A stretch of DNA of 64,000 nucleotides from Candidatus Methylomirabilota bacterium (GTDB taxonomy: Bacteria > Methylomirabilota > Methylomirabilia > Rokubacteriales > DASRDR01), in contig DASZOL010000068.1 in NCBI GenBank assembly GCA_035550795.1, forward strand, positions 16,202 to 80,201, read 5' to 3'. Below, piece after piece: positions 3,395 to 40,721 of the stretch. Every line of letters begins with the position of its first letter. Within the stretch, counting starts at the first letter, position 1. The notes below the pieces were generated by a model. It was not told the origin of the DNA. It did not search any database and saw nothing but the letters and a program-made list of their open reading frames with translations. Both the position numbers and the translations under genes were made by a program.

Positions 3395-3697
3395 GCCGAC
3401 CTCCGTTCGTGGGCGAGCTATCCCTCGACGAGCCGCCCGCGCCGCAGGGGACCGGCGGCACATCGGGTCGATGTCCTCTCGATCGGAGGGCGCGCGCCAC
3501 GATGTGACGGTGCCGATTCAAGGACTCGCCGGCCCGGACTGCCGGTTCACGGGCCGGCCGGTTCTCGGGAGCCCCGCCGACGTCCGGGGGAACCGGGTGC
3601 TTGGCCATCCGGTTCACGCGGCCTTGGCCCGGCACCGGCGCGGCGGGCGGACCCCCCGAAACCCGGTCGAAGACGATTGAGGCGCCACCTCTCGGTT

Positions 3698-10326: not shown

Positions 10327-10512
10327 GGGGGTGGCGGACCGGGCCGCGCAGCACTGGTATGATCGTCCCATCCGAGCGAGCCGCCCGGCCGCGTTGAGAG
10401 AGAGCCACGAGGGAGTGAGATCGGTCGCACGGCCGGACGCGTCGGTCGATCCGCCAGTCCGGAGCCGGCGCGCCGCGACCGGATGCGCGACCAGATGGAT
10501 GGAGGACGCCCC

Positions 10513-14016: not shown

Positions 14017-14123
14017 TCGGACGCGGGGCGTGGCGCCCTGCTTGACCACCCTTCGAGAGCTTACCTAGAATTCGACCGTCTCCGGGGCCGGCGACGCTTG
14101 GGCGACAGGAGGGGGAAGCTGGG

Positions 14124-14918
14124 TTGATCGAGCAGGCTCGGAGTGCTCTGGTCGACCCGGACCGAGGGTACTTCCTGGTGCGTGGCCTCTTCTCGACGGA
14201 GGAGCTCGCCACGTACCGGACAGAGTGCGAGAGCTTCATGCGCCGGGCGCCGAGATTCCACATGCGCCTGAATACCGATTGGATGTTCGACTACGTCCAC
14301 CCGTACTCGCTCGATATCGTGGAGCGCAATCATCGGCTGTATCAGTACCTGCACAACCGGCACTCGCCGACCGCGGTATCGATCTTCGAGCGGACTCTCG
14401 CTCTCCGGAACCGCATCGAGGAGGCGTGGACGACCGACCGGGTCTACCGGGGTGAGCGGGAAAAGCAGCAGGACTACGTCATCGTCACGCGATACCTCCC
14501 CGGACGCGGGGAGCTGCCGCGTCACCGTGACTACCGCGGTCCGGCGAGCCTTCCGCTCCTTCAGTCGCTCGCCCTGCTCTCCAGGCCCGGCGAGGACTTC
14601 GCCGGCGGCGAGCTCGTGCTCTTCTCGAAGGCCGGTCGGCCCGTGAGGCTGATCGAGGAGCTCGGAGCGCAGCTGGGGGACCTGCTCCTTTTCGACAAGG
14701 CGCTGGAGCACGAAGTGCAGACCACGCTGCCGGGAAGGACCGGTATCAGCCGATGGTCCGTGAACGTCGGTGCCCGCTCGCCCCGTCACGGCTACGGGAA
14801 GTATGTCAAGATGCGGCTCTTCTACAACGCGGCGATGTTTCCGGCGTGGACGTCTCTGGTCCGCGGGGTGAGGGTCGCCCTGGGCAGGCCGCCCCTGCGG
14901 CAGCGCTACCCTTCCTGA
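14124..14918 (+). CDS. 2OG-Fe(II) oxygenase superfamily protein (prolyl-4-hydroxylase-like)
   Basis: HxD (LPRHRDY) plus a distal His (ALEHEV). TTG start with an AGGAGGGGG Shine-Dalgarno at 14107-14115. Confidence 0.65.
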   Translation: MIEQARSALVDPDRGYFLVRGLFSTEELATYRTECESFMRRAPRFHMRLNTDWMFDYVHPYSLDIVERNHRLYQYLHNRHSPTAVSIFERTLALRNRIEEAWTTDRVYRGEREKQQDYVIVTRYLPGRGELPRHRDYRGPASLPLLQSLALLSRPGEDFAGGELVLFSKAGRPVRLIEELGAQLGDLLLFDKALEHEVQTTLPGRTGISRWSVNVGARSPRHGYGKYVKMRLFYNAAMFPAWTSLVRGVRVALGRPPLRQRYPS

Positions 14919-22179: not shown

Positions 22180-22651
22180 GGGCGTCGTGGCGCCAATCTT
22201 CGTGCGGAGGCAGGTCGGTGGGGCATGGGCTCCTCAGATGACTCGCGGTCGTCCGATGCGCCGCTGATCACGCGCGTCCAGAGTGCGAATTGCGTCGACA
22301 ACTGTCCACCTCGCGGCAGCGAGCGGTCCGCTCATGACGTCGAGGCGGGCTCGCCGCCGGGCCGCGCCTTTGTCCGCACCGGTCGGCAGTATGGGGAAGG
22401 CGCACTCCGATCGTCAAGAGTCTAGTGATTCCGGACCGTGAAGGTCTCGGGGCGGGTCCCTCGCTGCACGATCGTCCCCCGGCGTGCTGCCGCGGAGTGG
22501 GCAGCCCCAAGGATGGATCCTCGCCTTGCCCCGTTCGCCGATTGCTGCTAGCGTGCCGGGGGCCGCCCCAGTGTATCCGCAGGTACGGTGCTCCGGCGCC
22601 GACATCCTGTCCGGCCGCCGATCGAGTCCATCTTCGATCGAGAGGAAAGCC

Positions 22652-23650
22652 GTGCGCATCAGTTCTCAGTTGAGGCGGGTGAAGCGATGGGCCACCGGTA
22701 CTTTGCTCGATGTGCTCCATCGACGCGGGTTCGCCGGGGTCCGCGTGAACCATCGCTTCCTGGCTGCCTGTCAGCAGGGGGTCTTCCTCTACGACCGTGG
22801 CCGGATCACTCGCTTGCTCCGCGGCCGCTACTTCGGAATGACGAGGGCGGGCACTCCTCATACCTACTACATCACCGAGTACACGCGTAAGGGGAGACGA
22901 CGCGGCGACAGTCCCGACGAGCGCAGTCACATCTATCGATGCCGGATGGAAGGGGGGAAGCTCCAGATTGCCGAGGAAGTTCGATTCCACCGGGACGGTC
23001 GGCGCGAGTGGCCGATCAAGGTTCACCAGGTGCGGTGGCATGAGGGCTTGCTCTGGGTCATCAACACCCGGCAGAACGTCGTGTGGAAGGCAGGGCCTAC
23101 GGGGGAGATCTTGGCCGAGTGGACGGGGAGCCGCCGGTTCGCGTACGTTCCGGAGAGCCCCCGCGAGTTCATGTCCCGCCTCCGCGCCTCGGCCGAGTAC
23201 CACCACTACAATTCCATCGCGTTCCGCGACGGGCTGATCTACGTGCTGGCGCACAACGGCACCATCAAGGGCCAGACGAGGCGGAGCTTCATGGTGACGC
23301 TCGACGCCGGGCTGCGCGAAGTGGACCGTCGCCGGGACATCGGACTGGCGTGTCACGACCTCTTCTTCCACGGCGACGATCTCTACATCTGCAATTCGGG
23401 TGAGGGCACGCTGTTGAGGAACTTCCAGCCGGTCGCCCATACCGGGTACTTCGTCCGAGGCCTTGCGCGTCTCGGGTCGATCCTGGTCATGGGCGGCTCG
23501 ATCCCGCGCTCGGACCCCGAGAAACGTGTCACGTCGCGGAGCCGGCTGTTCTTCGTAGATGTGAGGACGCACCGGGTGATCCACACCCTGGCCCTGGGGC
23601 ATGTCGGAGACGTTCACGACATCCTGGCGCTGGAGGACGACGGCGAATAG
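22652..23650 (+). CDS. hypothetical protein with beta-propeller-like repeats (possibly DUF4915/TIGR03032-like)
   Basis: GTG at 22652 follows AGAGGAAAG. There is a recurring blade-like motif: VRWHEGLLWVINT, IAFRDGLIYVLAHNG, LFFHGDDLYICNSGEG. GC is lower than in neighbours; one 60-nt line counts 58%. Confidence 0.55.
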   Translation: MRISSQLRRVKRWATGTLLDVLHRRGFAGVRVNHRFLAACQQGVFLYDRGRITRLLRGRYFGMTRAGTPHTYYITEYTRKGRRRGDSPDERSHIYRCRMEGGKLQIAEEVRFHRDGRREWPIKVHQVRWHEGLLWVINTRQNVVWKAGPTGEILAEWTGSRRFAYVPESPREFMSRLRASAEYHHYNSIAFRDGLIYVLAHNGTIKGQTRRSFMVTLDAGLREVDRRRDIGLACHDLFFHGDDLYICNSGEGTLLRNFQPVAHTGYFVRGLARLGSILVMGGSIPRSDPEKRVTSRSRLFFVDVRTHRVIHTLALGHVGDVHDILALEDDGE

Positions 23651-23880: not shown

Positions 23881-25392
23881 ATGGAGAGCCTTTCCCGACG
23901 CGCCATCCACGGTGCCCTGTGGGTCGTGGCCAGGAACCTCACGGGGCAATTCTTGGGGCTCGTGCGCGTCCTGGTTCTCGCCCGGCTGCTGACCCCGCAC
24001 GATTTCGGCCTGTTCGCAGTCGGCTTCACGTTGCTGGCGCTGTACGGCGGCTTCTCGGGCGTCGGCACCCAGCTGACCCTGATACGACGACAGGATCGCG
24101 CACCGGAGATGTTCGACACGGCGTGGACGCTGGGGCTTATCCGAGGGGGGCTCGGGGCGGCCATTCAGCTCGCGCTCGCGCCCGTCATGGCGGCCTTCTA
24201 CGCCACGCCCGACGCCCTCGGCATCATCCGAGCGCTCGCGCTCATGCCGATCTTGCGAGCGCTCGACAACATCGCGGTGGTGGAGTTCCGTGGGGACCTG
24301 GTGTTCCGGCCCCAGTACGTGATCGCCTCGGCGGGAGCCCTGGCCGAGGTCGCCGTCAGCGTCCCCCTGGCCATCGTGCTCAGAAGCGCGTGGGCACTGG
24401 TGGGAGGAGTCCTCGCCGCCCAGGTCGTGCGGGTGCTCCTCTCGTACCTGCTTCACCCGTATCGTCCCCGCTTCCGGCTGGATCGCGCGCAGGTGCGGGA
24501 GCTGGCCGGCTACGGCCGCTGGATCCTGGGGACCAGGGTGCTGACGAAGCTCCTGAACGGCGGTCTGCCGGCCGTCGTCGGCCGCGTGCTCGGGATCGAG
24601 GCCGTCGGGCTGTTCGGCGTGGCGTCGCGCTGGGCGAGCCTCCCCGCGAGCCAGGTGACCGTCATCCTGACCCCGGTGAGCGTCGTGGCCTATGCCAAGC
24701 TCGACCCGTCCCCGGAGCGCCTTCGAAGCGCGTACGTCAGGACGCTCCGGCTCGTCGCCCTGGTGGCGACCCCCCTGGCCGCCTGCATCGTGGTCTACGG
24801 CGTCGACCTGGTCGAGGTGGTCCTCGGGACGCAGTGGCGAGTGGCCGGTTCGATGGTCCAGGTGATGGGACTATACGGTTTCGTGCGCGCAGTGGGGAAC
24901 ACGACCGATCCACTCTTCTCGGGCACCGGCCGGCCCTGGGTGCGGACCCGCGTCCAGGCGGTGGAGCTCGGACTGGTGGCGGCGCTCTTCGGCGCCCTGG
25001 TGGCGTGGGGCGGGATCATGGGGCTCGCCTGGACCGTGACCCTGGCCGCGGTCGGCGCCGAGGGCGTGGCGTTCGTTTCTGCCATTCGGCTCCTCCGCCT
25101 GTCGGCCCAGGAGCTCTTCGACGCCCTTGCCTGGCCGGCCGGGGTTTGCCTTCTGGTCGCAGCGCTCAGGCTGGGGCTGCCGCCGAGCTTGAACACGCCC
25201 GTTCCGCTGGCAGGAGCCCTGGCGCTGTCCGCGAGCGCCTACGGGGTCGCGATGCTCCTGCTCGATCGTTTGAGGCTCTACCCCCTCGACCCCGAGCTCC
25301 ATCCCAAGTACTGGCGATCCGGCGTGGCGCGACTGTGGGAAGGGACCGCGGGGCGGCGGCGACGCCCCCGACAGGGCGATGGTGCTTCATGA
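23881..25392 (+). CDS. wzx: oligosaccharide/polysaccharide flippase (Wzx, MOP superfamily)
   Basis: 503 aa and polytopic. N-terminus MESLSRRAIHGALWVVARNLTGQFLGLVRVLVLARLLTPHDFGLF is typical of polysaccharide biosynthesis (Wzx) proteins. Confidence 0.75.
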   Translation: MESLSRRAIHGALWVVARNLTGQFLGLVRVLVLARLLTPHDFGLFAVGFTLLALYGGFSGVGTQLTLIRRQDRAPEMFDTAWTLGLIRGGLGAAIQLALAPVMAAFYATPDALGIIRALALMPILRALDNIAVVEFRGDLVFRPQYVIASAGALAEVAVSVPLAIVLRSAWALVGGVLAAQVVRVLLSYLLHPYRPRFRLDRAQVRELAGYGRWILGTRVLTKLLNGGLPAVVGRVLGIEAVGLFGVASRWASLPASQVTVILTPVSVVAYAKLDPSPERLRSAYVRTLRLVALVATPLAACIVVYGVDLVEVVLGTQWRVAGSMVQVMGLYGFVRAVGNTTDPLFSGTGRPWVRTRVQAVELGLVAALFGALVAWGGIMGLAWTVTLAAVGAEGVAFVSAIRLLRLSAQELFDALAWPAGVCLLVAALRLGLPPSLNTPVPLAGALALSASAYGVAMLLLDRLRLYPLDPELHPKYWRSGVARLWEGTAGRRRRPRQGDGAS

Positions 25393-25611: not shown

Positions 25612-26760
25612 ATGTCGACTAGACGCGCGGCGACCGGCGGCTCATCCACGACCGGCCCCACGACCATCGATCGGCTGCTGGGGGCGATCTGCGACCCCGT
25701 GCACGAGTGCCCGCTGTGCGGTTCGACGCGCTACACCGTCGAGTCCAGGCACCAGCCCAATCGCTACAGCGAGGAGCTCTCGATTCTCGTCGGGATCCCG
25801 CAGGCGGATCTTCTCGACAACCTCCTGCACCTCAGGTGCGACAACTGTCGCGCGGGCTTCAAGAACTGGTGGTACAAGCCGAGCATCTACAGTCAGCTGT
25901 TCCTGGACGCCGTGCCGGTGCATCCGCAGGGGTGGGACAGCGTGTCCGGCAAGTTCACGTCGTCGTCGTTCGTGAAGGAAGTTCAGGCGCTCGAGAGAGC
26001 CTTGCTGGCGCAAGACAACCGGGAGACCAACAAGCAGCGACGGACGGTCCAGTCCTACGTGGACAACATCCCCGGCTCGAGCCTCCGGTCCGCCGAGGCT
26101 AGGCGCGCGGTTGCGCGTGCCAAGGCCATGGACCTGGACCACATGACGGCGGGGGAGAGGGACCTCCTGGTCGATGAGGTGGCCCCCCTGATCCACACGC
26201 CGAAGGCGTTCGGGCGCTTTGCGGGATACGGCGGAGAGGCGGTCGGGAAGTTCATCGCGGACCACGTGCCTGGTCTCCGCAGGTACGGCGAGGTGGGATG
26301 CCCCTTGTGGGGAATGATCCCCTGGTACGCGCGGAGTCAGAGGGTGGAGACCGTCCACTTCAGGGACGAGGAGAAGGTCTTCTGGGGACCGGGATGCACG
26401 GGGGCCGGCAGGAGCTGCGGCGCCCTCGCCCGCGAGCGGTACTCCGCGGCGTCGGCCACGCTGAGCGGGGCGATCGCCGCGGGGATCCGAGTCGACCTGC
26501 TCTCCGTCATCCACTACATCGACCACCTGCGCTTCCCGGGGGACTTCCTGCGCGCGGCGATGAGCGTCGCGGATCGTCTCCTGCCGATCTGTCACAAGGA
26601 CATTCCCAAGCATCGCGGCGTGGTGCAGCACCACGTGGTCTTCAACCGCTCCGCCTTCGAGTGCCTGGGCGAGCGGCTGGGCCTCGAGATCGTCGACGTG
26701 CTGACGTGTCCTCCCGACTCGAACGACGAGGAGCTGGTCATCCTGCTGAGAAGGAAGTGA
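25612..26760 (+). CDS. hypothetical protein: N-terminal Cys4 zinc ribbon plus a divergent methyltransferase-like body
   Basis: CPLCGS...(44 aa)...CDNC. Downstream, GEVGCPLWGM occupies the position of a SAM Gly-rich motif. VDLLSVIHYIDHLRFPGDFL resembles the MTase post-III region. The function call is weak. Confidence 0.5.
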   Translation: MSTRRAATGGSSTTGPTTIDRLLGAICDPVHECPLCGSTRYTVESRHQPNRYSEELSILVGIPQADLLDNLLHLRCDNCRAGFKNWWYKPSIYSQLFLDAVPVHPQGWDSVSGKFTSSSFVKEVQALERALLAQDNRETNKQRRTVQSYVDNIPGSSLRSAEARRAVARAKAMDLDHMTAGERDLLVDEVAPLIHTPKAFGRFAGYGGEAVGKFIADHVPGLRRYGEVGCPLWGMIPWYARSQRVETVHFRDEEKVFWGPGCTGAGRSCGALARERYSAASATLSGAIAAGIRVDLLSVIHYIDHLRFPGDFLRAAMSVADRLLPICHKDIPKHRGVVQHHVVFNRSAFECLGERLGLEIVDVLTCPPDSNDEELVILLRRK

Positions 26761-26860: not shown

Positions 26861-27607
26861 ATGAGGAACCTCATCCTGATTCCAGCCAGATCGGGATCGA
26901 CCCGGGTTCCGAACAAGAATCTGCGGCTGCTCGGAGACAAGCCCCTCGTGGCCCACATCACGGAGAGCGCGGTGAAGAGCGGCGCCGCGCGTGTCGTCGT
27001 GTCCACGAACGACGACGCGATCGCGGAAGTGGCCGTGGCGTGCGGAGCCGAGGCGCCCTTTCGGCGCCCGCCGGACCTCGCGACCGCGACGGCCTCCTCC
27101 CTCTCGGCGATCCTGCACGCCCTCGACTGGCTCGCGCGCCACGAAGGATGGCGGCCGGAGCTCGTGGCATTCTGTCCTCCGACCAACCCGTTCACCACGC
27201 CCCGCACCTTGGCCGCGATGTTCGAGGGTCTCGAGCGCGAGGCCCGGGTGAACTCGATGGTCACGGTCACTCAGCCGAGGACGCATCCGTTCCGGATCGT
27301 CTGCGAGCGGGCGGACGGCACCCTCCGGAACGACTGCGTGACGATGGGCGGCAAGACGATCAACGACTTCGAGCGCAGCCAGGACTTCCCGGTCGTGTGG
27401 GAGGGCTCGCCCGCCTGCCGCATGACCCGCGGGCGCTTCTTCGAGGCGCTCCTGAGCGCCGGTGGCGACATGGCGCGCACCCCCGGGAAGACCTACGACC
27501 CGACCAGCTTCGTCGGCTACCGGATCTCGCGGCTGGAGGCGACGGACATCGACGACGCGGAGGACTTCGAGCTGGCCGCCGACCTATACCGGAGGCTGAA
27601 GCAGTGA
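26861..27607 (+). CDS. acylneuraminate cytidylyltransferase family (CMP-ulosonic/nonulosonic acid synthetase; CTP_transf_3-like)
   Basis: MRNLILIPARSGSTRVPNKNLRLLGDKPLV, PFRRPPDLATATAS and ERSQDFP are typical of NeuA/KdsB-type enzymes. Confidence 0.8.
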   Translation: MRNLILIPARSGSTRVPNKNLRLLGDKPLVAHITESAVKSGAARVVVSTNDDAIAEVAVACGAEAPFRRPPDLATATASSLSAILHALDWLARHEGWRPELVAFCPPTNPFTTPRTLAAMFEGLEREARVNSMVTVTQPRTHPFRIVCERADGTLRNDCVTMGGKTINDFERSQDFPVVWEGSPACRMTRGRFFEALLSAGGDMARTPGKTYDPTSFVGYRISRLEATDIDDAEDFELAADLYRRLKQ

Positions 27608-28662
27608 AGGCGCTGAGGGTCGGTCTCCTGGGCTGTGGCCGGATCGCCCAGCGCTACGTCGAGGTGTTCCGGGACGAGGTGAAGGGCGCGGTCGTGACGG
27701 CGGTGTGTGACCGTGTCACGGAGAGAGCCGACCGCCGCGCGGGGGAGCTGGGGGCGCGGGCCGTCTACGATCTGGCGGACCTTCTCGGGGCGGCCGATGT
27801 CGACGTGGTGGCGATCCTCACGGAGTCGGGACGGCATGCGGAGCACGCGGAGCAGGTGCTCGGCGCGGGCAAGCACGCGATCGTCGAGAAGCCGCCCGCG
27901 ATGTTCCCGCACCAGGTGGTGCGATGCGAGAGGATCGCGGCGGAGGCGCGGCTCATGTATGCCGTCATCCTGCAGAACCGCTTCAATCCGGCCATGCGGG
28001 CTCTCAGGGCGGCTCATGAGGCCAGGCGGTTCGGACGGCCGGTCCTCGCCACCGTGCGGCTGCGCTGGTGCCGGTTCCAGGACTACTACGAGGACGGCTG
28101 GCACGGTACCTGGCGGCTGGACGGGGGCGTGCTCAGCCAGCAGGCGATTCATCATCTCGACGCGCTGCAGTGGATCTGCGGCCCCGTCGAGGAGGTGGTC
28201 TGCGCGCAGGCGAACGCGCTGAACCGTCTCGAGGCGGAGGACACGGCCGTGGCGACGCTTCGCTTCCGCAATGGCTTCCTGGGCGCGATCGAGGCGACGA
28301 CGGCGGCCCGCCCCGAGGATCTGGAGGCCTCGATCTCGGTCCTCGGCGAGACGGGGTTCGCCGTCGTGGGGGGGATCGCGCTGAACGAGGTCCAGGCCTG
28401 GCGGTTCCAGCAGCCGCGACCCGAGGACGAGACGGCCAGCGTGATGTTTTCGCAGAAGGTTCCCACGGGCTACGGTCTCTCGCATGGCCCGCTCCTGCAG
28501 GAGATCGTTGACCGCATTCGAGCCGGCCGGCTGGATCCGCCCATCAGAGGGGAGGATTCGCTGGATGCCCTGCGCCTGATCCACGCCCTCTACGCGAGCG
28601 CCGAGCGGGGAGGGTGGGTCAAGGTGAATGACCAGACGTCGTCGACGCGCCTCGGCCGGTGA
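27604..28662 (+). CDS. Gfo/Idh/MocA family NAD(P)-dependent oxidoreductase
   Basis: VKALRVGLLGCGRIAQRY Rossmann N-terminus and an EKPPA motif. GTGA overlap with the cytidylyltransferase at 27604-27607. Confidence 0.8.
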   Translation: MKALRVGLLGCGRIAQRYVEVFRDEVKGAVVTAVCDRVTERADRRAGELGARAVYDLADLLGAADVDVVAILTESGRHAEHAEQVLGAGKHAIVEKPPAMFPHQVVRCERIAAEARLMYAVILQNRFNPAMRALRAAHEARRFGRPVLATVRLRWCRFQDYYEDGWHGTWRLDGGVLSQQAIHHLDALQWICGPVEEVVCAQANALNRLEAEDTAVATLRFRNGFLGAIEATTAARPEDLEASISVLGETGFAVVGGIALNEVQAWRFQQPRPEDETASVMFSQKVPTGYGLSHGPLLQEIVDRIRAGRLDPPIRGEDSLDALRLIHALYASAERGGWVKVNDQTSSTRLGR

Positions 28663-28690
28663 CCGGGTCGAGCCCTGACGAGAGGAGCCC

Positions 28691-29590
28691 ATGGCGATCG
28701 AGAACAAGGTTCCCGGCAAGGACATCTCGGACAGCGATCTGATCGACAAGTTCCCACTCGCGGCCCGGAAGCATCCCGGCCACCGGAGCGTGATCGAGGC
28801 GGCCGGCGTCCTCTTCGGGGGCAAGCTGATTCCGGTCATGGCGGGGCCGAACACCGTCGAGAACGAGGAGATGATTGTCAAGACGGCGAAAGCGGTGAAG
28901 GCTTCGGGCGCACACTTCCTGAGAGGCGGTGCGTTCAAGCCGCTCACGTTCCCGTACCGGGGGCCAAAGTACTTCGAGCTCCGCGAGAAGGGTCTGGAGC
29001 TCCTCGCCAAGGCGCGGCAGGAGGCGGGGATCCCGATCATCACCGAGGTCATGCACGAGAGCCGGATGAGCGCGGTGGCTGAGGTGGCGGACATCCTGCA
29101 GATCGGCGCCCGGAACATGCAGAACTACCCGCTGCTGGAGGCGGCCGCGGCGACCCGCAAGCCCATCATGCTGAAGCGCCATTTCGGGTGCTCGCTTCGC
29201 GACTGGCTCGGAGCCGCCGAGTACATCCTGAAGGGGGGAAACAGTCGAGTGATCCTCTGTGAGCGCGGCGTGACGGCTCCGCACACCCATCGCGCCACGT
29301 CCCGGTTCGTGCTGGACCTGCAGGTCGTTCCGGCGGCGCAGGAGATGACCCACCTGCCGGTGATGACGGATCCCTCCCATGCGACGTTCTGGCGCCACTG
29401 GGTGAAGCCGATGAGCCTCGCCTCGATCGGGGCGGGAGCGGATGGCGTGATGCTGGAGGTCCATCCGGACCCCGACAACGCCGCCGTCGACCCTCTCCAG
29501 GCGATCGACTTCGCCGCCTTCGACGCGCTGATGAAGGACATGGAGCGTGTGGCGCGCGCCGTGGATCGGACGGTCGGCATCCGGCTGTGA
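28691..29590 (+). CDS. DAHP synthase type I-beta / KDO8P synthase family aldolase, atypical (Asn replaces the metal Cys; KPLT replaces KPRT)
   Basis: Collinear by eye with archaeal/Thermotoga-type DAHPS: LRGGAFKP, ILQIGARNMQN, LKR, ILCERG, DPSH, GADGVMLEVHPDP. However, it has AGPNTVENE (Asn codon at 28850-28852) where GPCS(V/I)E is expected. It also has KPLTFP (Leu codon at 28943-28945) where KPRT is expected. Confidence 0.8.
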   Translation: MAIENKVPGKDISDSDLIDKFPLAARKHPGHRSVIEAAGVLFGGKLIPVMAGPNTVENEEMIVKTAKAVKASGAHFLRGGAFKPLTFPYRGPKYFELREKGLELLAKARQEAGIPIITEVMHESRMSAVAEVADILQIGARNMQNYPLLEAAAATRKPIMLKRHFGCSLRDWLGAAEYILKGGNSRVILCERGVTAPHTHRATSRFVLDLQVVPAAQEMTHLPVMTDPSHATFWRHWVKPMSLASIGAGADGVMLEVHPDPDNAAVDPLQAIDFAAFDALMKDMERVARAVDRTVGIRL

Positions 29591-30612
29591 TCGAGAACCG
29601 GGCCGGCCTCGACCTCGGAGCGACCGAGCGCTTCGCGGCGATCGTCGGCGAGGCCCCGTCGAGGGGCGCTCGATCGCCGTCGCTGTGGAATGCGGCGTTC
29701 CGCTCGCTCGGGATCTCCGCGACGATGCATCCGCTCGACGTGCGCCCGGAGAACCTGGCGGTGGCCATCGCGACGCTGCGCGACGATGCGCGGTTCATCG
29801 GGGGCGCCGTCGCGGTGCCGTACAAGCAGACGGTGGCGTCTTTGCTCGACGAGATCGAGCCGGAAGCGCGCGCCATCGGCGCGGTGAACTGCCTCTATCG
29901 CCGGGGACACGCCCTGGTGGGCGCGAACACCGACGGCGCCGGCTTTCTCTCCGTGCTCGCGGCGGAGCTCGGCGAGGGCTTTCTTCGCGGCCGGAGCGGC
30001 GTCGTGCTCGGAGCCGGCGGAGCGGGCCGCGCAGTGGCCACGTACGTCGGCGCGGCGATCGGAAGGGACGGCCGGCTCGTGCTTGCCAACCGCACGATTG
30101 ACCGGGCGGAGAGCCTCGCCGGACAGCTGCGGGGGACCACGAAGGTGGAGGTTTCGGGCCTCCCGGTCGAGCCCGGGGTCCTCGCCGAGGCCGACGTCGT
30201 GGTGAACTGCACCTCGATCGGCTTCGAGGCGGTGCGCAGCGACGGCGCCGGCGCGTACACGCTGAGACCGTACACGCCCCTCGCGGAGGTCGACGCGGAG
30301 CTGCGCGTGCCTGCCGGGGAGCGAGCGGGTCGACGCTACATGATCGCAGCTCGCGGCGCTGTCCTTCGCAACGCGCACGGCACCTTCGAGGCGCTCGCTC
30401 GCGCCTGCGAGCGCGCGGTTGTCTGCGACATCGTCTATCAGCCCCTGCAAACCGCGCTCTTGAACGCCGCCGCCTGCTTTGGATTGAGGACCATCGACGG
30501 GCTCCGGATGAACTTCGAGCAGGCCGTGATCGCGTTCCGCAAGGCCGCCGAAGGGTCTGCCCTTGGCCCGTGTGAGGCGGAGCGTGTGCGCGCGGCGATG
30601 CGGTCGGCGTAG
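29587..30612 (+). CDS. shikimate dehydrogenase family (AroE-like) NAD(P)-dependent dehydrogenase
   Basis: SPSLWNAAF, AVPYK (catalytic Lys), GANTDGAGF (Asp) and VVLGAGGAGRAVA (NADP motif). GTGA overlap with the preceding gene at 29587-29590. Confidence 0.75.
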   Translation: MIENRAGLDLGATERFAAIVGEAPSRGARSPSLWNAAFRSLGISATMHPLDVRPENLAVAIATLRDDARFIGGAVAVPYKQTVASLLDEIEPEARAIGAVNCLYRRGHALVGANTDGAGFLSVLAAELGEGFLRGRSGVVLGAGGAGRAVATYVGAAIGRDGRLVLANRTIDRAESLAGQLRGTTKVEVSGLPVEPGVLAEADVVVNCTSIGFEAVRSDGAGAYTLRPYTPLAEVDAELRVPAGERAGRRYMIAARGAVLRNAHGTFEALARACERAVVCDIVYQPLQTALLNAAACFGLRTIDGLRMNFEQAVIAFRKAAEGSALGPCEAERVRAAMRSA

Positions 30613-30778: not shown

Positions 30779-32083
30779 GTGAGTAACTTCCTCTTTCTCC
30801 TCCGGACCTACGCCGAGGTCGACCACATCGCGCCGCTGATCTGGAAGTGCCTCGAGAAGGGCGACCGCGCGCTGGTCGTGCTTCACCACTCGCTGGGGTC
30901 CCGCGACGACTTCCGGATGAGGTTTCTGGCGACGTATCCGGGCTTCCGGCGCCTGAGCATCCCCGGTGCCGGGTCGACGCAGCCAGTCCTGCGGCTGGCC
31001 GGCCGCCTCTTCTGGTCGCGCGCCCGCGCGCGCGCGCTCCTGGAGCGCCACCGAATCTCGGCGTGCTTCGTCGGATCGGGCTCCGGACTCGGCCCCCGGA
31101 GTCGACGGCCGACCCCTAGGGAGGTCGAGCAGGGGCGGATGGCAAGGGTCTACGTCCCCGGGCGTCGAGACCTGACCAGACTCCTCGGTCGTGCTCTGCG
31201 GCCCTTCAGTGCATCGGTGCTGCTCGCGGCCCGTCAGAGCGCGATTCCGACGTTCTGTCTCCCGAGCGGCATCGGCACCAGGGTGCAGAGGGACTTCCGG
31301 CGCCGACGGCTCGACGTGATGCGGCAGGCGGCGCGAGGGAGGGTGCCGCCGGACTGGCGGAGCCAGTACACCCTCTACGTCTACGCGTCCGAGCTCCAGC
31401 GGCGGCGGGAGATCGAGGACGATGGCCTCGACCCGCGTAGCGCCGAGGCCTGGGGCAGCTTGCGATTCTGCCCGCAGTGGCTGGCCGTGCAGGACCGCAT
31501 CCTCGGCGACGCGGGATGGCCCGCGCCCGCGCTGGAGCCCCGCACCGGGGTCCTGTTTCTCGTGCCCAAGTGGGGCCGGTTCGTGGACAGGGCGGCGACG
31601 GAAGCCCTGCTGCTCGGGCTGGCGGCACGCCGCGACATCCGGCTGGTTCTCAAGCCCCATCCGACCAAGGGGGGCCTCGGCGAGGAGCTGGCGAGAAAGC
31701 TCCGGCCGCATCCGACCGTAACTCTCGCCGGCGACACGCACTCCTCGGTGCTGGTCCGAGCCACGGACGTCACCGTGGTCGAGAGCTCCAGCGTCGCCAT
31801 CGAAGCCCTCATGCGGGGCAAGCATCTCATCTACGCGTCGTATCTCCACTCCGTCCCCGAAGACTTCGACGAGCACGGTGGCTGCTCGATCGCCCATGCA
31901 CCGGCCGACGTGCACCGAGCCCTTGACATGATTGCTCGGGGCATCCCGCCTCCGGTTGACGCGGACGCGCGGGCCCGGCTCCTGCGCATGCTCGTGTACG
32001 GAGGGCGGGAGCCGTTCGACATCCCGGAGCACTACTACGGGCGAATCCAGCGCTACATCGGCGCGGCAGGCTCTGGGCCCTGA
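30779..32083 (+). CDS. hypothetical GT-B-like protein (TagF/KpsS/surface-carbohydrate-biosynthesis-like), paralog B
   Basis: 434 aa. Paralog of 20845-22179. Contains LVLKPHPTKG (an HP motif) and VVESSSVAIEALMRGKHLIY. GTG start. Confidence 0.65.
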   Translation: MSNFLFLLRTYAEVDHIAPLIWKCLEKGDRALVVLHHSLGSRDDFRMRFLATYPGFRRLSIPGAGSTQPVLRLAGRLFWSRARARALLERHRISACFVGSGSGLGPRSRRPTPREVEQGRMARVYVPGRRDLTRLLGRALRPFSASVLLAARQSAIPTFCLPSGIGTRVQRDFRRRRLDVMRQAARGRVPPDWRSQYTLYVYASELQRRREIEDDGLDPRSAEAWGSLRFCPQWLAVQDRILGDAGWPAPALEPRTGVLFLVPKWGRFVDRAATEALLLGLAARRDIRLVLKPHPTKGGLGEELARKLRPHPTVTLAGDTHSSVLVRATDVTVVESSSVAIEALMRGKHLIYASYLHSVPEDFDEHGGCSIAHAPADVHRALDMIARGIPPPVDADARARLLRMLVYGGREPFDIPEHYYGRIQRYIGAAGSGP

Positions 32084-32166: not shown

Positions 32167-33096
32167 TCAATAGCCGTAGAGCTTGTTCAGCCACCCGCCG
32201 ACGACCTCGAACGCGGCGCGCCGGGCGACGGACATCTCGGTCCGCCACCGCTCGTCGAGCCGGATGGCCTGCTCGGCAGTGCTCCGGACCGTGGGACTGC
32301 CCCGCACGCCGAGATACGGGTGGCTGCGGAACTGGAGCATGGCCGGCTCGTAGTCGAGGCCGACGAAGGCGCACACCTTGGCGAGGCTTCGAGCCGGGTC
32401 CTGCGCGAGGTCCTCGTAGCGAAGCTGCAGCCAGCGGTCGCGCCCGACCAGGCTGCGAAGCACCGGCGCCGAGAGCGACGCGACCATCCACGTGCGGAGG
32501 CCGCCGGCGAAGTTATCGTAGCGTCGCACGTACGACTGCGTCACGGCGCGACCATCCCGTAGGAGGTGCAGGACGCGTAGCTGGAAGCGACCCGACCGCG
32601 CCAGGAGAACGAGGCGGGGAGGGGCCTTCGAGCTGTCGGTCACGACCTGCGCGCGCGCGGAGCGATGGGCGCAGTCGATCACTAGCTGGTTGCGCCGAGC
32701 CCAGGCGTCGACCCGGGACGGAGACCAGCGCACCGCCTGGCGTAGCCGCGGATGGGTGAGGTCAATACTGGTCCACGACTGGCCGCCGGCTTCGCAGCAT
32801 CCGCGAACGAGCTCCCAGAACCGTCGCACTTCGGCCGGGAACGCGTCGCTGGGGAGACCCGTCGCCGCGAGAGGGTCGAAGCGAGTCACCAGGGTCGAGA
32901 GCTCGCCCAGGGCCAGCACCCGGGGGTGGCCGCTGAGCAGGAGGTCGAGAAGCGTGGAGCCGGATCGGCCGCTCCCGAACACGTAGAGCAGAGTGTACTC
33001 GCGAGCCACGTCGCCGGGCGCGCGCGATCTCACGCGGTCACGACCTCGGTCGGCCCGAGGGCGAGCCGCCGGCGACGCCGCGAGCGCCTTCCTCAC
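32167..33096 (-). CDS. sulfotransferase family protein
   Basis: FGSGRSGSTLL (5'-PSB loop) and LLRDGRAV (3'-PB-like). The start is set at GTG 33096, which forms a GTGA overlap with the upstream gene's stop. The ORF extends to 33171. Confidence 0.7.
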   Translation of the reverse strand: MRKALAASPAARPRADRGRDRVRSRAPGDVAREYTLLYVFGSGRSGSTLLDLLLSGHPRVLALGELSTLVTRFDPLAATGLPSDAFPAEVRRFWELVRGCCEAGGQSWTSIDLTHPRLRQAVRWSPSRVDAWARRNQLVIDCAHRSARAQVVTDSSKAPPRLVLLARSGRFQLRVLHLLRDGRAVTQSYVRRYDNFAGGLRTWMVASLSAPVLRSLVGRDRWLQLRYEDLAQDPARSLAKVCAFVGLDYEPAMLQFRSHPYLGVRGSPTVRSTAEQAIRLDERWRTEMSVARRAAFEVVGGWLNKLYGY

Positions 33097-33965
33097 CGCG
33101 GAACGGGTCGCTGGCCGATCGGCAACGATCGTCGCAGGCGCGAGACCCCACGCCTCAGCCGCCTCAGCCACTCCCGTCGTAACGCGGCCGCTGTCTGGAA
33201 CGGGCTCACGTCGAACAGCGGGCCTTTCAGGTCACCCAGAACGTTCAGAAAGCATCTGGGCCTGGAAGTGACCGACCGTGGGGACACTCCGTGGAGGGAC
33301 TGGAGCGAGTTCACGAAGAGCACGAGGACGTTCGTGTCGTACCGGATCGTCCTGATCCGTTCCACGCGGGTCTGATCGGCGACCCTTCCGTCGAATCGCC
33401 AGCTGGGCGTCGTGAACCTGTAGAGCTCCAGGTCGCCCCCCTCCGAGTCGTCCTCCGGGTGGCGCAGGTAGAAGAGCCCGGCGAACAGCTCCTTGGGGAC
33501 ATCGAGGTGAACGGGCTGCACCGACGTCGGCCGATCGGTGACGGGTGTGTTGACGCAGATCTGGGCATCGAGCAGGACGTCCGGATCCGAGCCGTCGGGG
33601 GACCCTCTCAGGCCCACCTTCAACGATGCAAGGCCGCCGCCGGCCTGGCCAAGGGTGGGGTAGAGCGACCCAACGGACGGACCGAACAGGCCGATGAACT
33701 CCTCCCAGAAGCTGGGCGACACGTGGGCGGCGACGACCTCTCTCCACAGCGGGCTGATCCGGGCGTCCTGGAGCACGCGCGTGGCGGAGTAGCTGAACCG
33801 CTGATTGCTCTGGAATGGCCGACCTCTCGTGATGATGTCCAGGGAAGGGTACTCGGCGAGCAGCTGGGCGCACATCCGCGGGTCCAGCGGTTCACGGACC
33901 ACGACGTGAGGAAACGGCTCCACGATCACATCGTGGGCCTGGACCCCGGACAAGAGCGTCTTCAC
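33093..33965 (-). CDS. putative 2OG-Fe(II) oxygenase
   Basis: VHLDVP (HxD), a distal LHGVSP and RPRCFLN. GTG at 33965 is preceded by GGAGAGG. Confidence 0.55.
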   Translation of the reverse strand: MKTLLSGVQAHDVIVEPFPHVVVREPLDPRMCAQLLAEYPSLDIITRGRPFQSNQRFSYSATRVLQDARISPLWREVVAAHVSPSFWEEFIGLFGPSVGSLYPTLGQAGGGLASLKVGLRGSPDGSDPDVLLDAQICVNTPVTDRPTSVQPVHLDVPKELFAGLFYLRHPEDDSEGGDLELYRFTTPSWRFDGRVADQTRVERIRTIRYDTNVLVLFVNSLQSLHGVSPRSVTSRPRCFLNVLGDLKGPLFDVSPFQTAAALRREWLRRLRRGVSRLRRSLPIGQRPVPR

Positions 33966-34035
33966 GGCCCGGCACCTCTCCGCCCGGACGGATCCGGGGC
34001 AGCAGATGCCAGGAGGCCCGGCCGTACCGGGGCTT

Positions 34036-34950
34036 TCAACTTTCGCCGGGCCCGTCCCACCCGAGGTCTTGGTTGAGCAGGTCATAGAGACGCCGGTTGT
34101 GCGGCTTGAAGTACTCGATCAGCCGGGCGCGAATCGCAGGGTCCACGTCCCCGTACACGCCGGGGTTCTGCCGGGAATAGGAGGGCGGTTCCCACATCGG
34201 CAGACCGAGGAACTCGAGGATCGAGCGGTAGGTCTGCGCGGGATCTCGGAAGAGATGCTCAGCGGGGACCACGCAGATCTGCTCGCGGGGAAAGTGGCGC
34301 AGCCAGCGGCCGAGCTGCTCGGCGTATCTCCCGCGGGCTAGGTAGGAGTGGCGATGATGCTCGGAGCCCTGAAACAAGGGATCGGGCACCCTTGCTTCCG
34401 CCTCGGCCGCCAGCCGGCGTTCCTCGCACTCGATCGCCTCGACGAGGGAGAGCGGCTCGCGGCCCTTCATCCGCTCCCGGTGGTAGTGAGAGATCGCGCG
34501 GTCTGCGGGATTGCGGATCATGACGATGAGCTTCGCCCCCGGGAGCAACTCAGCCAGCCGCGCCGGAACGTGCGGGTGAAAGAGATAGTACGGACTCGCT
34601 TCGCCAGTCACGTAGCAGGAGCCTTTGAAGAATCGGTGCAAGGCCCGATCCATGATCGTCGGGAAGTGAGCGAGATACCAGTCCGGACCATTGTCGTACG
34701 CGAAGTCGAAGAAGTGCACCTCTTTGCGCAGCGGAGGCGCCACGCACGGGTGCTGGACGAGGTAGTGGTAAAGCGAGGTCGTGCCAGCACGCTGGGCGCC
34801 GATGATCACGAAGTCCGGAAGGACGCGGAACCGTGCGCTCCATCGACGGAGCGTGAACGCTCCCGACCTGAGGGCGGCTCGCGGAGCGCGCATGAGTCGG
34901 CGCCCGAGAGAGGGACGACGACTGCCGCTGCGAGGCGCCCGGTTCAGCAT
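34036..34950 (-). CDS. sulfotransferase domain protein
   Basis: IIGAQRAGTTSLYHYL (PAPS 5'-PSB loop) and MIRNPADRAISHY (3'-PB). ATG at 34950 is chosen as the start; the ORF extends to 35025. Confidence 0.75.
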   Translation of the reverse strand: MLNRAPRSGSRRPSLGRRLMRAPRAALRSGAFTLRRWSARFRVLPDFVIIGAQRAGTTSLYHYLVQHPCVAPPLRKEVHFFDFAYDNGPDWYLAHFPTIMDRALHRFFKGSCYVTGEASPYYLFHPHVPARLAELLPGAKLIVMIRNPADRAISHYHRERMKGREPLSLVEAIECEERRLAAEAEARVPDPLFQGSEHHRHSYLARGRYAEQLGRWLRHFPREQICVVPAEHLFRDPAQTYRSILEFLGLPMWEPPSYSRQNPGVYGDVDPAIRARLIEYFKPHNRRLYDLLNQDLGWDGPGES

Positions 34951-35335
34951 GCCCCGGCGGGCAGGACGGCCGCTCGTTGGGTGCGCGAGGGATGAATCGT
35001 CACCCGTCGACGCCTTCAGTGGCATCGCCCCGGATCGGTACCCGCGCGACCGCCCCGTGGCGCCCGAGCGGCGCCGACGAGGTTTCTCGGACCCTTCCGG
35101 CCGCCGTCCGTGCGGTCAGCCGGCGGTCCGGGAAATGCCTGGTCGAGCCCACCCTGCGCGCGTTCCACGGCTCCCTCCGCGCCGTCAGGATAGCCCGGGA
35201 CGCCGCTGGAGACACCAGGGATGCTCGCCGGCGGGCCGCCGGGGTCCGGGTACGCGCACGCGGTCGACCCGCCGGGCGCCCCGGCGCCCGGCGAGCTCAT
35301 GGTATCGCGCCGGGGGGAATCGTATACTCCGCGCC

Positions 35336-39245: not shown

Positions 39246-40616
39246 TCAGCCCGCCGGCCGCTTCGGGAGCCGGGCGATCCGCTCCGCCTGCGTGACGTAC
39301 CAGGCGAGGCCCGCGAGTGGATCGTCGCCGAGCGCGCGGAAGTACCAGTCATAGACTCGCCGCGGCGCCCTGTACGTGTCGCGGTACGCGCGGAGCCTCG
39401 CTCCGAGGCCCGGCGGCGGGCCGATGAGCCCGTCGTCCCGGTGCCACCCGAGCCGGCGGCGCCCCCAGTCGGCCAGGAACACGGCGAGCGAGAGCGCGTC
39501 CTCGACCGGGTTCAGGAACGTCAGCGGCTCCTCGCGCAAGGGCGGCGGAGCGACCGGCCCGCCGCGCTCGATCTCGATCGCGACGGCGGGGACGTCCAGC
39601 CCGGCCTCGATCTCGCACCAGACGCGGTACCCTAGCCGGCAGTTGATCTCAAGCAGCTTCGGGACGGCGTCCCGGGCATCGATCTTGAGCTGGGCCCGGG
39701 CGTGTCCGACATAGCCCACCGCCTGGAGCAGCGCAAGGATCTTCGAGGCGCTGGCCCGGTCCAGGTACGACGCGGTCGCGCACGATACGGAGGCGTAGGA
39801 CGGGAACACGGTGCGGAGCGTGCGACGCCCGTCGACGGCGAGGGGCCGCTGCGCGCGATCCAGGGTAACGTTGATGTTCACGCGCCGGTCCAGCCCGCCC
39901 GGGATCCACTCCTGCAGGACCGGCATCCCGAACGCCGGCTCCACGCGCCGGAGCGTGGCCTCCAGCTGCTTCGGGCCCGTCACCAGCTGGACGCCGCGCG
40001 AGCCCGAGGAGAAGCGCGGCTTCACGAAGAGCGGGAATCCCAGTTCGGCTGCCATCTCGGCGGCTTCCCCCCGCGCGGCGGGATGGTACGTGCGGGGACA
40101 CGGTACCCCCAGGTCGGACGCGAGCCGGGCGATGGCGTACTTGTCCATCGTCGCCCGCAGGACCGGCCACTCCGGCACCGGCACCGTGATTCCCTGCGCC
40201 GTGAAGCGCGCCTTGTTCCTCGACAGCAGGCAGACCTCCGGGTCCCACGTGGGGAAGACGACGTCGAGCCGCTCGCGCGCACAGATGTCGAGGACGCTCC
40301 GGACGAAGCGCTCCTCGACCGGGCTGTTCTCGTCGGCAACCTCGCCGCGCTGCCAGCCCCGCACCGCCAGCGGCACCGGGTACACGGCGTCCGTGAAGCG
40401 CGACACGGCGGCGGGCGCGAGCCGCCCGAGCAAGCCGTGGCCCTCGTACCGCGTCGCGACCAGCCGCGCCGCGCGCGGCCGGAGCGCGCGGACGGTGCAG
40501 TACGCCTGACCGTTCCACGGGTTCGTGACAAGGACGCGCAGGCGCCTCTCGGCGTGGCGGCCGCCGAGCGGCCGGGAAGCTGGGGCGGGCCACGGGCTCG
40601 CGGTATCATGGGCCAT
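39246..40616 (-). CDS. ATP-grasp domain protein
   Basis: Only the last 456 codons of the 1150-aa ORF look real (MAHDTASPW... start at 40616). LGVPCPRTY...GFPLFVKPRFSSGSRGV...LQEWIPG...LLEINCR matches ATP-grasp architecture. Confidence 0.7.
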   Translation of the reverse strand: MAHDTASPWPAPASRPLGGRHAERRLRVLVTNPWNGQAYCTVRALRPRAARLVATRYEGHGLLGRLAPAAVSRFTDAVYPVPLAVRGWQRGEVADENSPVEERFVRSVLDICARERLDVVFPTWDPEVCLLSRNKARFTAQGITVPVPEWPVLRATMDKYAIARLASDLGVPCPRTYHPAARGEAAEMAAELGFPLFVKPRFSSGSRGVQLVTGPKQLEATLRRVEPAFGMPVLQEWIPGGLDRRVNINVTLDRAQRPLAVDGRRTLRTVFPSYASVSCATASYLDRASASKILALLQAVGYVGHARAQLKIDARDAVPKLLEINCRLGYRVWCEIEAGLDVPAVAIEIERGGPVAPPPLREEPLTFLNPVEDALSLAVFLADWGRRRLGWHRDDGLIGPPPGLGARLRAYRDTYRAPRRVYDWYFRALGDDPLAGLAWYVTQAERIARLPKRPAG

Positions 40617-40721
40617 GCGATCTTCGGCGATGTCGGTGGAGGTGGCGGTGCGTGCCGACGGCGAGGTGCTGGGGAGCGCCTGGTCCGGCATGCGCGGCGG
40701 ATTATAGCAGAGCCGGATCCC

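Follow-up and report, generated by a model that had tools for sequence, protein, structure and literature searches.

A conserved, mis-annotated gene cassette built on a distinct clade of DAHP synthase-like enzymes and predicted to make a CMP-activated ulosonic acid

What do genes that carry shikimate-pathway names do in the middle of a glycan-synthesis island? This question is raised by a four-gene module at positions 26861-30612 of a 64,000-nt stretch of a Candidatus Methylomirabilota genome (contig DASZOL010000068.1; ~70% G+C), hereafter called the window. The module encodes a cytidylyltransferase, a Gfo/Idh/MocA oxidoreductase, a synthase resembling type I-beta 3-deoxy-7-phosphoheptulonate synthase (DAHPS) and a protein of the shikimate dehydrogenase (SDH) family. 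An initial annotation had proposed that these are not the housekeeping shikimate genes but a glycan-sugar module with an atypical aldolase, a proposal that fits well with an Arg-to-Leu change common to a whole clade of synthases and with partner genes that recur across phyla. We conclude that the module is a real, conserved and systematically mis-annotated cassette, a variant of the cytidine monophosphate (CMP)-ulosonic acid pathways that relies on a new functional clade of the DAHPS and 3-deoxy-8-phosphooctulonate synthase (KDO8PS) group. In line with the initial view that it was undescribed, no description of the module was found in a full-text literature search that included metal-independent DAHPS, heptulosaric acid or 3-deoxy-lyxo-heptulosaric acid (Dha), and SAR11 hypervariable regions; as far as literature searches show, the cassette has not been reported before.

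The module consists of four co-directional plus-strand open reading frames (ORFs), identified by ORF calling and Pfam profile matches, and these genes are translationally coupled. Reading of the DNA showed that the stop codon of the cytidylyltransferase gene overlaps the GTG start of the Gfo gene by 4 nt at 27604 (cagTGAag / GTG), that a ribosome-binding site, GAGAGGAG, occupies the 28-nt gap directly 5′ of the synthase ATG at 28691, and that the synthase stop codon overlaps the GTG of the SDH-like gene at 29587 (ctGTGAtc). ORF coordinates, profiles and DNA thus agree with the head-to-tail arrangement, the named families and the order of junctions (GTGA, 28-nt gap, GTGA) first proposed for this locus.

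A distinct clade within the DAHPS I-beta family

The synthase belongs to the family of DAHP_synth_1 (PF00793, 192 bits) and passes the cutoff of the NCBIfam DAHPS model TIGR01361 (287 bits, cutoff 267.75), which is why databases name it 3-deoxy-7-phosphoheptulonate synthase; against NF006421 it scores 334.9 bits for a cutoff of 335. Its sequence is identical to that of a database protein from a Methylomirabilota metagenome-assembled genome. Membership among KDO8PS failed by a wide interval (104 bits for a cutoff of 314 and 101.6 bits for one of 242; TIGR01362 / NF003543), and the KANRS motif of those enzymes was not found in the synthase, where KPLTF stands in its place. NeuB-type membership failed as well, with a match to PF03102 of 22.9 bits over residues 93-189 only and no SAF domain found by Pfam. 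Solved type I-beta DAHPS of Aeropyrum pernix (1vs1), Thermotoga maritima (1rzm) and Pyrococcus furiosus (1zco) share the Pfam family, the TIM barrel and 40-45% identity with the window synthase, which scores 200-220 bits against them in HMMER. An AlphaFold2 model of the synthase (mean predicted local distance difference test score, pLDDT, 86.9; low only in two lengthened substrate loops) gave Foldseek template modelling (TM) scores of 0.81-0.90 to the DAHPS I-beta structures 1vs1 and 1rzm, and of 0.71-0.87 to KDO8PS.

Residue comparisons were made by HMMER alignment with the solved DAHPS I-beta structures 1vs1, 1rzm and 3pg8. The metal ligands of DAHPS are a Cys, a His, a Glu and an Asp, and the Arg and Thr of the KPRT motif bind erythrose 4-phosphate (E4P) in the T. 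maritima enzyme (PMC6362186). In the window synthase, AGPNTVE aligns opposite AGPCSVE, placing Asn at the position of the metal-binding Cys, and KPLT aligns opposite KPRT, replacing the Arg by Leu, with Phe for the Ser that follows the motif. The proper alignment therefore agrees with what had been noticed by eye, with no Cys or Arg at the critical positions. The other three metal ligands are retained (DPSH, the Glu of LEVHP and the Asp of AAVD), as are all residues that bind phosphoenolpyruvate (PEP), in the clade consensus as well as the window protein itself (the Arg of LRGG, the Lys of FKP, the Arg of GxRN, the Lys of LKR and the Arg of CERG).

Over the two lengthened loops, KPLTFPYRGPKYF aligns opposite KPRTSPY---SF and TAPHTHRATSR opposite R---TFEKATR, so that the window protein also carries His for the Arg of IRTFE, leaving neither distal Arg of canonical enzymes in place, and two insertions. 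For the clade as a whole, the changes from canonical enzymes are R85L, S87F, G96E, T168S, E171D, R198H, F200H, G233F and G268P, together with the two 3-residue insertions. These insertions hold invariant basic residues, namely, R90 and K93 in the lengthened beta2-alpha2 loop and H198-T-H200-R201 in place of the canonical IRTFE loop. Judged by these residues, the distal aldose site is rebuilt and still basic, not merely emptied, and an anionic group may still bind there. The earlier suggestion of a non-phosphorylated aldose is therefore unproven: losing the KPRT Arg does not imply such a substrate when other invariant basic residues have appeared in these loops.

The substitutions at the Cys and Arg positions are not chance features of one sequence: all 120 best database homologues (69-100% identity) have GPN(T/M/A)(V/I)E and DPSH, with KPL or KPM wherever the motif was found. 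For a wider survey, one genome per prokaryotic species was scanned, which returned 80 loci. Of the module clade there were 31 unique loci, and 50 loci of canonical DAHPS were compared with them. The unique module-clade loci scored 293-486 bits and represent about 10 phyla. In a midpoint-rooted neighbour-joining tree of 55 sequences (241 columns), the synthases of the 31 loci and of the window were monophyletic in 100/100 bootstraps. The tree was built without a KDO8PS outgroup; judged from the alignment and the structural matches, the synthase falls inside DAHPS I-beta and not with KDO8PS.

Every full-length member of the module clade has KPL(T/S)F, and the 49 canonical sequences aligned have KPR(T/S) in 47 cases and KPST in the remaining 2. 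The metal-Cys position is occupied by Asn in 27/31 clade members and by Cys (AGPCxVE) in 4/31, and the Cys-type members, from Planctomycetia, Vicinamibacterales, Nitrospiraceae and Acidobacteriota, are deep-branching. The Asn forms make up a nested subclade (100/100 bootstraps). Because the Leu is universal and the Asn confined to this subclade, the alignment and tree indicate that it is the substrate-site change (KPRT to KPL(T/S)F plus the two 3-residue insertions) that defines the clade, and that the change from Cys to Asn came later within it. The Asn emphasised initially is present in the window protein and in most members, but it is not a hallmark of the module, given the four deep members that keep the Cys.

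Both KDO8PS and the module clade contain Cys and Asn forms. By analogy with class I KDO8PS, catalysis by the Asn-type window synthase is probably metal-independent, an analogy that we find reasonable and that draws some support from the presence of both forms within one clade. Metal-independent KDO8PS also keep the His, Glu and Asp, so the retention of these residues in the window protein is uninformative on metal use. Somewhat more tentatively, as a proposal that we would put a little short of an even chance, the clade could represent a fourth class of alpha-carboxyketose synthase beside DAHPS, KDO8PS and NeuB, with a Cys-to-Asn metal switch that arose independently of the one in KDO8PS and the first natural metal-independent enzyme of the DAHPS branch. 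In any case, natural Cys/Asn pairs on a DAHPS scaffold could be used to probe the supposed obligate metal dependence of DAHPS.

Several further observations concern the synthases themselves. The N-terminal extension of the window protein (residues 1-45; 28691-28825) is highly conserved across the clade, with N5, P8, G9, K10, D11, D16, K20, L23 and H31 invariant, and is unrelated to canonical I-beta N-termini in the alignment; it may cap the active site or add to it. The two canonical sequences with KPST instead of KPRT (L034, ~3368-4441; L045, ~9758-10828) come from Dehalococcoidia metagenome-assembled genomes (MAGs), keep the metal Cys and are otherwise canonical I-beta DAHPS; no glycan partners were seen near these genes, which represent a second natural variant at the E4P phosphate site. 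The cassette is also found on two short MAG contigs, one of 3.4 kb labelled "uncultured archaeon" (L013) and one of 5.5 kb labelled "Bifidobacterium" (L021), whose synthases are 65-68% identical to that of the window; both group among marine bacterial members in the tree, and their taxonomic labels are doubtful and look like binning errors. Searches of plasmid, phage and IMG/VR collections returned canonical DAHPS only (≤50% identity) and no member of the clade.

Partner enzymes and their conserved neighbourhood

The family assignments of the partner proteins were confirmed by profile searches. The cytidylyltransferase has the N-terminal loop IPARSGSTRVPNKN, of the PARxxSxRxxxKN type, and a C-terminal DIDD in its translation, both features of CTP_transf_3, a family whose characterised members activate ulosonic acids. 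A Mg2+-related role of the DxD motif is known from ElaB (PMC13656337). The protein fits no specific substrate class, since it stays below the cutoffs of both the PseF equivalog (108.5 bits, cutoff 205.7) and the KdsB models (<52 bits, cutoffs 155-281) of NCBIfam. Its nearest solved relative is the NeuA structure 9ftb (82.6 bits).

The Gfo protein aligns over its full length with the structures 3q2k (230.6 bits) and 3q2i (218.4 bits), sharing the Lys of the EKP motif and the downstream His region. We take these two structures to be the WlbA UDP-GlcNAcA 3-dehydrogenases of Thoden and Holden (2011). The module differs from the WlbA/WbpB systems in that it has no partner aminotransferase (WlbC/WbpE) and in that the nucleotide would presumably be CMP and not UDP. 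A 2026 paper calls WlbA a sugar-nucleotide dehydrogenase, citing Thoden and Holden (2011).

The SDH-like protein scores below every AroE and YdiB cutoff (best AroE model, 170 against 295 bits; TIGR00507, 150 against 200), with 113 bits to AroE of Methanocaldococcus jannaschii (1nvt) and 88 bits to 5-ketofructose reductase (7cok), a solved SDH-family enzyme that acts on a keto-sugar. It shares with AroE, YdiB and 7cok the two-domain architecture, the Lys65/Asp102 dyad, Asn86, Tyr215, Gln244 and the NRT motif. Among 26 orthologues, K65, N86, D102, Y215, Q244 and S16 (Escherichia coli AroE numbering) are retained throughout, and the NADP-specifying Arg150 of the NRT motif in 23. The shikimate contacts are altered: Ser14 is Ala in all 26, Asn59 is Ala, Ser or Cys and never Asn, and Thr61 is often Ala, as it is in the window protein, in which GGAVAVPYK stands opposite GFNVTIPHK / GANVTVPFK. 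This orthologue alignment bears out the earlier by-eye reading of a conserved dyad and NADP motif beside substituted shikimate contacts. Unlike other SDH-family members, moreover, the module proteins are in every case encoded in glycan loci and in linkage with the DAHPS-like synthase.

We then asked which genes accompany the synthase, using the four window proteins as queries against the six-frame ORFs from every locus. The partners proposed from the window recur across the 31 module loci, where an SDH-like gene was found in 26, a Gfo gene in 20 and a CTP_transf_3 gene in 25, mostly abutting the synthase or within a few kilobases of it. Of the 50 canonical DAHPS loci, about 10 had an SDH gene (ordinary aroE) and none had a Gfo or a CTP_transf_3 gene. 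The module clade has a glycan-synthesis context in its 31 loci and not the shikimate context of DAHPS I-beta, and glycosyltransferases surround the synthase even where partner genes are lacking (Nisaea, Azospirillum). The four genes are most likely the core of a horizontally spread cassette. No conserved phosphatase, KdsC-like or of the haloacid dehalogenase (HAD) type, was found across the 31 module loci.

Carriers include Pelagibacter (isolate HTCC9565 and several single-cell genomes), one Prochlorococcus single-cell genome, SAR86, SAR324, Nisaea, Thalassobaculum, Azospirillum, Magnetovibrio, Ilumatobacteraceae and the four Cys-type lineages, and thus range from the ocean's commonest bacteria across many phyla. 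Since the cultured carriers Nisaea denitrificans DSM 18348, Thalassobaculum fulvum KCTC 42651, Azospirillum sp. ST 5-10 and Pelagibacter HTCC9565 are among them, the question of the product is directly tractable. In marine bacterioplankton, the cassette lies in the hypervariable glycan islands that govern recognition by phages and grazers.

Additional genes are found at many of these loci. A fusion of about 450 aa, joining a family 2 glycosyltransferase (GT2) to a divergent CTP_transf_3-like domain, sits between the stand-alone cytidylyltransferase and the Gfo gene (L003:7460-8890, L009:7551-8921, L024:7523-8935 and L029:10854-12194) and is split into two genes in Azospirillum; it may carry out a further activation or be a transferase that brings its own donor site. 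Accessory genes that abut the cassette in marine loci (L032:10882-12696, L005:11830-13581, L003:6318-7202 and L009:5804-7555) encode NodU/CmcH-type carbamoyltransferases, an FkbM methyltransferase and a cytidylyltransferase-methyltransferase fusion, which suggests O-carbamoyl or O-methyl variants of the sugar. Some loci have an added FMN-dependent dehydrogenase, and NeuB/DegT genes are present in some SAR11 loci.

Predicted pathway and alternative readings

The closest functional parallel to the cassette is ElaABC, the CMP-5,7-di-N-acetyllegionaminic acid 8-epimerase cassette of Acinetobacter baumannii KL49 and Vibrio vulnificus, in which CMP-legionaminic acid is the product of ElaB, its C8 hydroxyl is oxidised by ElaA, a Gfo/Idh/MocA enzyme, and ElaC returns the hydride from the other face to give the 8-epimer (PMC13656337). 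ElaABC and the module both co-encode a CTP_transf_3 cytidylyltransferase, a WlbA-like Gfo oxidase and an NAD(P)H-type reductase, with ElaA and the module Gfo being likened here by family and description. The reductases belong to different families, ElaC to the short-chain dehydrogenase/reductase (SDR) family and the module protein to the SDH family, so that their likeness is functional only. Moreover, ElaABC draws on an ulosonic acid of NeuB type, whereas the module has its own coupled DAHPS-like synthase.

The CMP-Kdo pathway (KdsA, KdsC, KdsB) follows the same logic, with condensation of PEP and an aldose to a 3-deoxy-2-ulosonic acid, CMP activation and transfer, and uses a synthase of the same superfamily. 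The module differs from it in encoding neither KdsC nor KdsD, in having a NeuA/PseF-like and not a KdsB-like cytidylyltransferase, and in its two extra dehydrogenases. The NeuB pathways to N-acetylneuraminic acid (Neu5Ac), pseudaminic acid (Pse), legionaminic acid (Leg) and 2-keto-3-deoxy-nononic acid (Kdn) likewise lead to PEP-derived surface ulosonic acids with CMP activation of the NeuA/PseF type, and their loci sometimes co-occur with the cassette in SAR11. They rely, however, on another synthase family, and the module core has no aminotransferase, dehydratase or hydrolysing epimerase.

Taken with these parallels, it is rather probable that the cassette makes a CMP-activated 3-deoxy-2-ulosonic acid unlike Kdo, 3-deoxy-arabino-heptulosonic acid (DAH) or the nonulosonic acids made via NeuB, and that this sugar enters a surface glycan that depends on Wzx and is probably sulfated. 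We infer the chemical steps, the order of activation, oxidation and reduction, and the identity of the sugar from the observed families, motifs, monophyly, synteny and glycan context. The DAHPS-like synthase would condense PEP with an aldose other than E4P, giving a 3-deoxy-2-ulosonic acid; an aldose other than E4P is proposed because the PEP site is retained while the distal site for the E4P phosphate has been rebuilt. The cytidylyltransferase would then attach CMP to the anomeric C2-OH, the WlbA-like Gfo enzyme would oxidise one hydroxyl of the CMP-sugar to a ketone, and the SDH-like enzyme would re-reduce this ketone with NADPH from the opposite face, for a net epimerisation following the logic of ElaB, ElaA and ElaC. 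Finally, a glycosyltransferase of the island would transfer the sugar, the flanking GT-B paralogues described below being candidates.

An oxidation/reduction pair with the CMP-sugar as its substrate is the probable role of the two dehydrogenases, because the trio matches the logic of ElaABC and because the Gfo protein is closely related to 3q2k and 3q2i. Recruitment of an SDH-type pocket to such a task is chemically plausible: the pyranose form of an ulosonic acid would resemble quinate in having a ring carbon with COOH and OH, an adjacent deoxy carbon and then carbinols. The initial annotation had expected a CMP-activated ulosonic acid, which we judge to be right as a prediction of chemistry, and a tailoring of the product by both dehydrogenases; the general idea of tailoring is now better replaced by that of a defined CMP-sugar redox pair, probably of ElaABC type, with the Gfo gene present in only 20/31 loci. 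As for the product itself, the data do not discriminate between such speculative candidates as Dha, Kdn and bradyrhizose-type sugars.

A number of points weigh against this pathway. The Gfo gene is absent in 11/31 loci and the SDH-like gene in 5/31, and the redox pair is thus not obligatory. The dehydrogenases might act earlier, in making the aldose, and the new Arg, Lys and His residues could bind a phosphate, which would require a phosphatase that the cassette does not encode. The substitution of Asn for Cys points to metal independence by analogy with KDO8PS only, and the identity of 3q2k and 3q2i as WlbA is presumed. Lastly, the GT2 and CTP_transf_3-like fusion of many loci is missing from the window.

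Two of these points can be developed into full alternatives. If the Gfo and SDH-like enzymes acted before the synthase, they would convert a common sugar, an alditol, or an aldonic or uronic acid into an unusual aldehyde for condensation with PEP, and CMP activation would follow without further redox chemistry; a carboxylated C4 aldehyde, for example, would yield a heptulosaric acid such as Dha. The basic R90, K93, H198, H200 and R201 of the distal site would suit a carboxylate or another anion over a neutral end, carboxylated polyols are the usual ligands of the SDH family, the loci have no conserved phosphatase that we could find, and some loci do without the Gfo or SDH-like gene, as one would expect if the aldehyde could be reached in other ways. 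Nevertheless, we consider this order of steps unlikely, as the solved relatives nearest to the Gfo protein (230 bits) are nucleotide-sugar dehydrogenases, the sole documented cassette of a cytidylyltransferase, a Gfo enzyme and a reductase, ElaABC, acts on a CMP-sugar, and the SDH and Gfo families are generally known for oxidising ring hydroxyls that are secondary, and not for turning primary alcohols into aldehydes. A synthase that takes an aldose phosphate, for instance that of a pentose or hexose or a stereoisomer of E4P, would make the pathway Kdo-like with a different chain length, the new Arg, Lys and His binding the phosphate and a housekeeping phosphatase removing it. This appears distinctly improbable given that the Arg of KPRT and the following Ser have become hydrophobic Leu and Phe in every member, and that a KdsC-like or HAD gene is neither conserved in the 31 loci nor found among the window ORFs scanned, even though the invariant R90, K93 and H198-T-H-R201 lie in lengthened loops and the deep members of the clade, as canonical enzymes do, retain the metal Cys. 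An archaeal enzyme, the type I-beta DAHPS of P. furiosus, also reportedly accepts five-carbon sugar phosphates, which would favour such a substrate.

The names carried by these genes in databases raise the further alternative that they supply a shikimate- or aminoshikimate-type precursor of a secondary metabolite, like PhzC or BagF/FevY, or are simply the housekeeping aroF and aroE. The synthase does pass TIGR01361 and has an SDH-family gene adjoining it. However, it has lost both the Arg of the E4P site and the metal Cys, the SDH-like protein falls short of all AroE cutoffs with its shikimate contacts changed, and the cross-phylum partners are a cytidylyltransferase, a sugar dehydrogenase and glycosyltransferases. 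As had been noted at the outset, aroB, aroD, aroK, aroA, aroC and KdsC-like phosphatase genes were not found among the window ORFs scanned, nor NeuB genes in the window; HAD phosphatase, polyketide and nonribosomal peptide synthetase (NRPS) genes were likewise not found among these ORFs, and no second DAHPS, SDH, Gfo or cytidylyltransferase gene was found in the window. SAR11 and Prochlorococcus lineages are aromatic prototrophs, and among the scan matches no more than a few SAR11 genomes and one Prochlorococcus genome carried the cassette, which suggests a sporadic distribution. We therefore regard a role in shikimate metabolism as very improbable.

A cassette for a CMP-activated ulosonic acid would have consequences beyond this locus. 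Shikimate-pathway genes are probably over-called in metabolic reconstructions of many MAGs, because proteins of the clade pass the DAHPS cutoff and carry DAHPS or shikimate dehydrogenase names in public databases. The cassette also predicts a new acidic sugar with a new route to a CMP-sugar, and the recruitment of an SDH-family enzyme to sugar chemistry.

Flanking genes of the glycan island

The module was initially placed inside a glycosyltransferase/flippase island, and Pfam searches indeed detected family 4 glycosyltransferases (GT4) and a Wzx flippase around it. The genes of the 11-35 kb region comprise five GT4, one GT8-like gene, the Wzx-type flippase, two sulfotransferases, two 2-oxoglutarate (2OG)-oxygenase-like genes and a glucose-methanol-choline (GMC) oxidoreductase. 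A flippase in this context indicates, from gene content, a glycan built on a lipid carrier. Coordinates of the module and of selected neighbours are listed in Table 1.

Table 1. Features of the module and its surroundings in the window
Feature	Position	Strand	Evidence
CMP-ulosonic-acid-type cytidylyltransferase (CTP_transf_3; NeuA/PseF-like), 248 aa	26861-27607	+	PF02348, 77.7 bits
Gfo/Idh/MocA oxidoreductase, WlbA-like (sugar-nucleotide dehydrogenase type), 352 aa, GTG start	27604-28662	+	PF01408, PF02894, PF22725
28-nt intergenic spacer, Shine-Dalgarno-like GAGAGGAG	28663-28690	+	Read from DNA
DAHPS type I-beta-like alpha-carboxyketose synthase, distinct clade, 299 aa, ATG start	28691-29590	+	PF00793, TIGR01361
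SDH-family NADP(H) oxidoreductase, altered substrate pocket, 341 aa, GTG start	29587-30612	+	PF08501, PF01488
Wzx-type polysaccharide flippase	23881-25392	+	PF13440 (211 bits), PF01943
GT-B-fold protein without Pfam family, candidate transferase or nucleotide-sugar hydrolase, non-core	30779-32083	+	BFO_1060 (22.5 bits); AlphaFold2 model
Paralogue of the GT-B-fold protein, 39% identity	20845-22179	-	Alignment; no significant Pfam/NCBIfam family

The two paralogues with a predicted GT-B fold (434-444 aa) bracket the region and belong to a rare family, with 14 database matches. The downstream copy has a weak match to the NCBIfam glycosyltransferase family BFO_1060, and its AlphaFold2 model (pLDDT 81.6) resembles UDP-GlcNAc 2-epimerases and GT-B glycosyltransferases, with TM scores of 0.5-0.65. 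One homologue is found in a locus (L084) that encodes two cytidylyltransferases and has three NeuB genes, and another beside a glycerophosphotransferase (Glyphos_transf) gene and an IspD-like gene (L083). On the basis of the model and these contexts, the paralogues are possibly a new transferase family using donors activated by cytidine nucleotides. They were rejected as part of the cassette core, as homologues were not found in other module loci.

The sulfotransferase genes and the weakly matching 2OG-Fe(II)-oxygenase-like genes, two of each, are located at 32167-33171 (-), 33093-34085 (-), 34036-35025 (-) and 14046-14918 (+), and a sulfotransferase is also found in a proteobacterial module locus (L002). 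The glycan may thus be sulfated or hydroxylated. Further away, two ORFs of ~1150-1250 aa overlap on opposite strands (39246-43004, -; 39636-43079, +), both with high third-position G+C; no Pfam family was found in the plus-strand translation of 39636-43079. Directly upstream of the cytidylyltransferase gene, a 382-aa protein (25612-26760, +) without a Pfam or NCBIfam match carries an N-terminal zinc-ribbon-like motif, CPLCG...CDNC, and a protein of the DUF4915 / TIGR03032 family (22484-23650, +) is encoded between the glycosyltransferase genes and the flippase.

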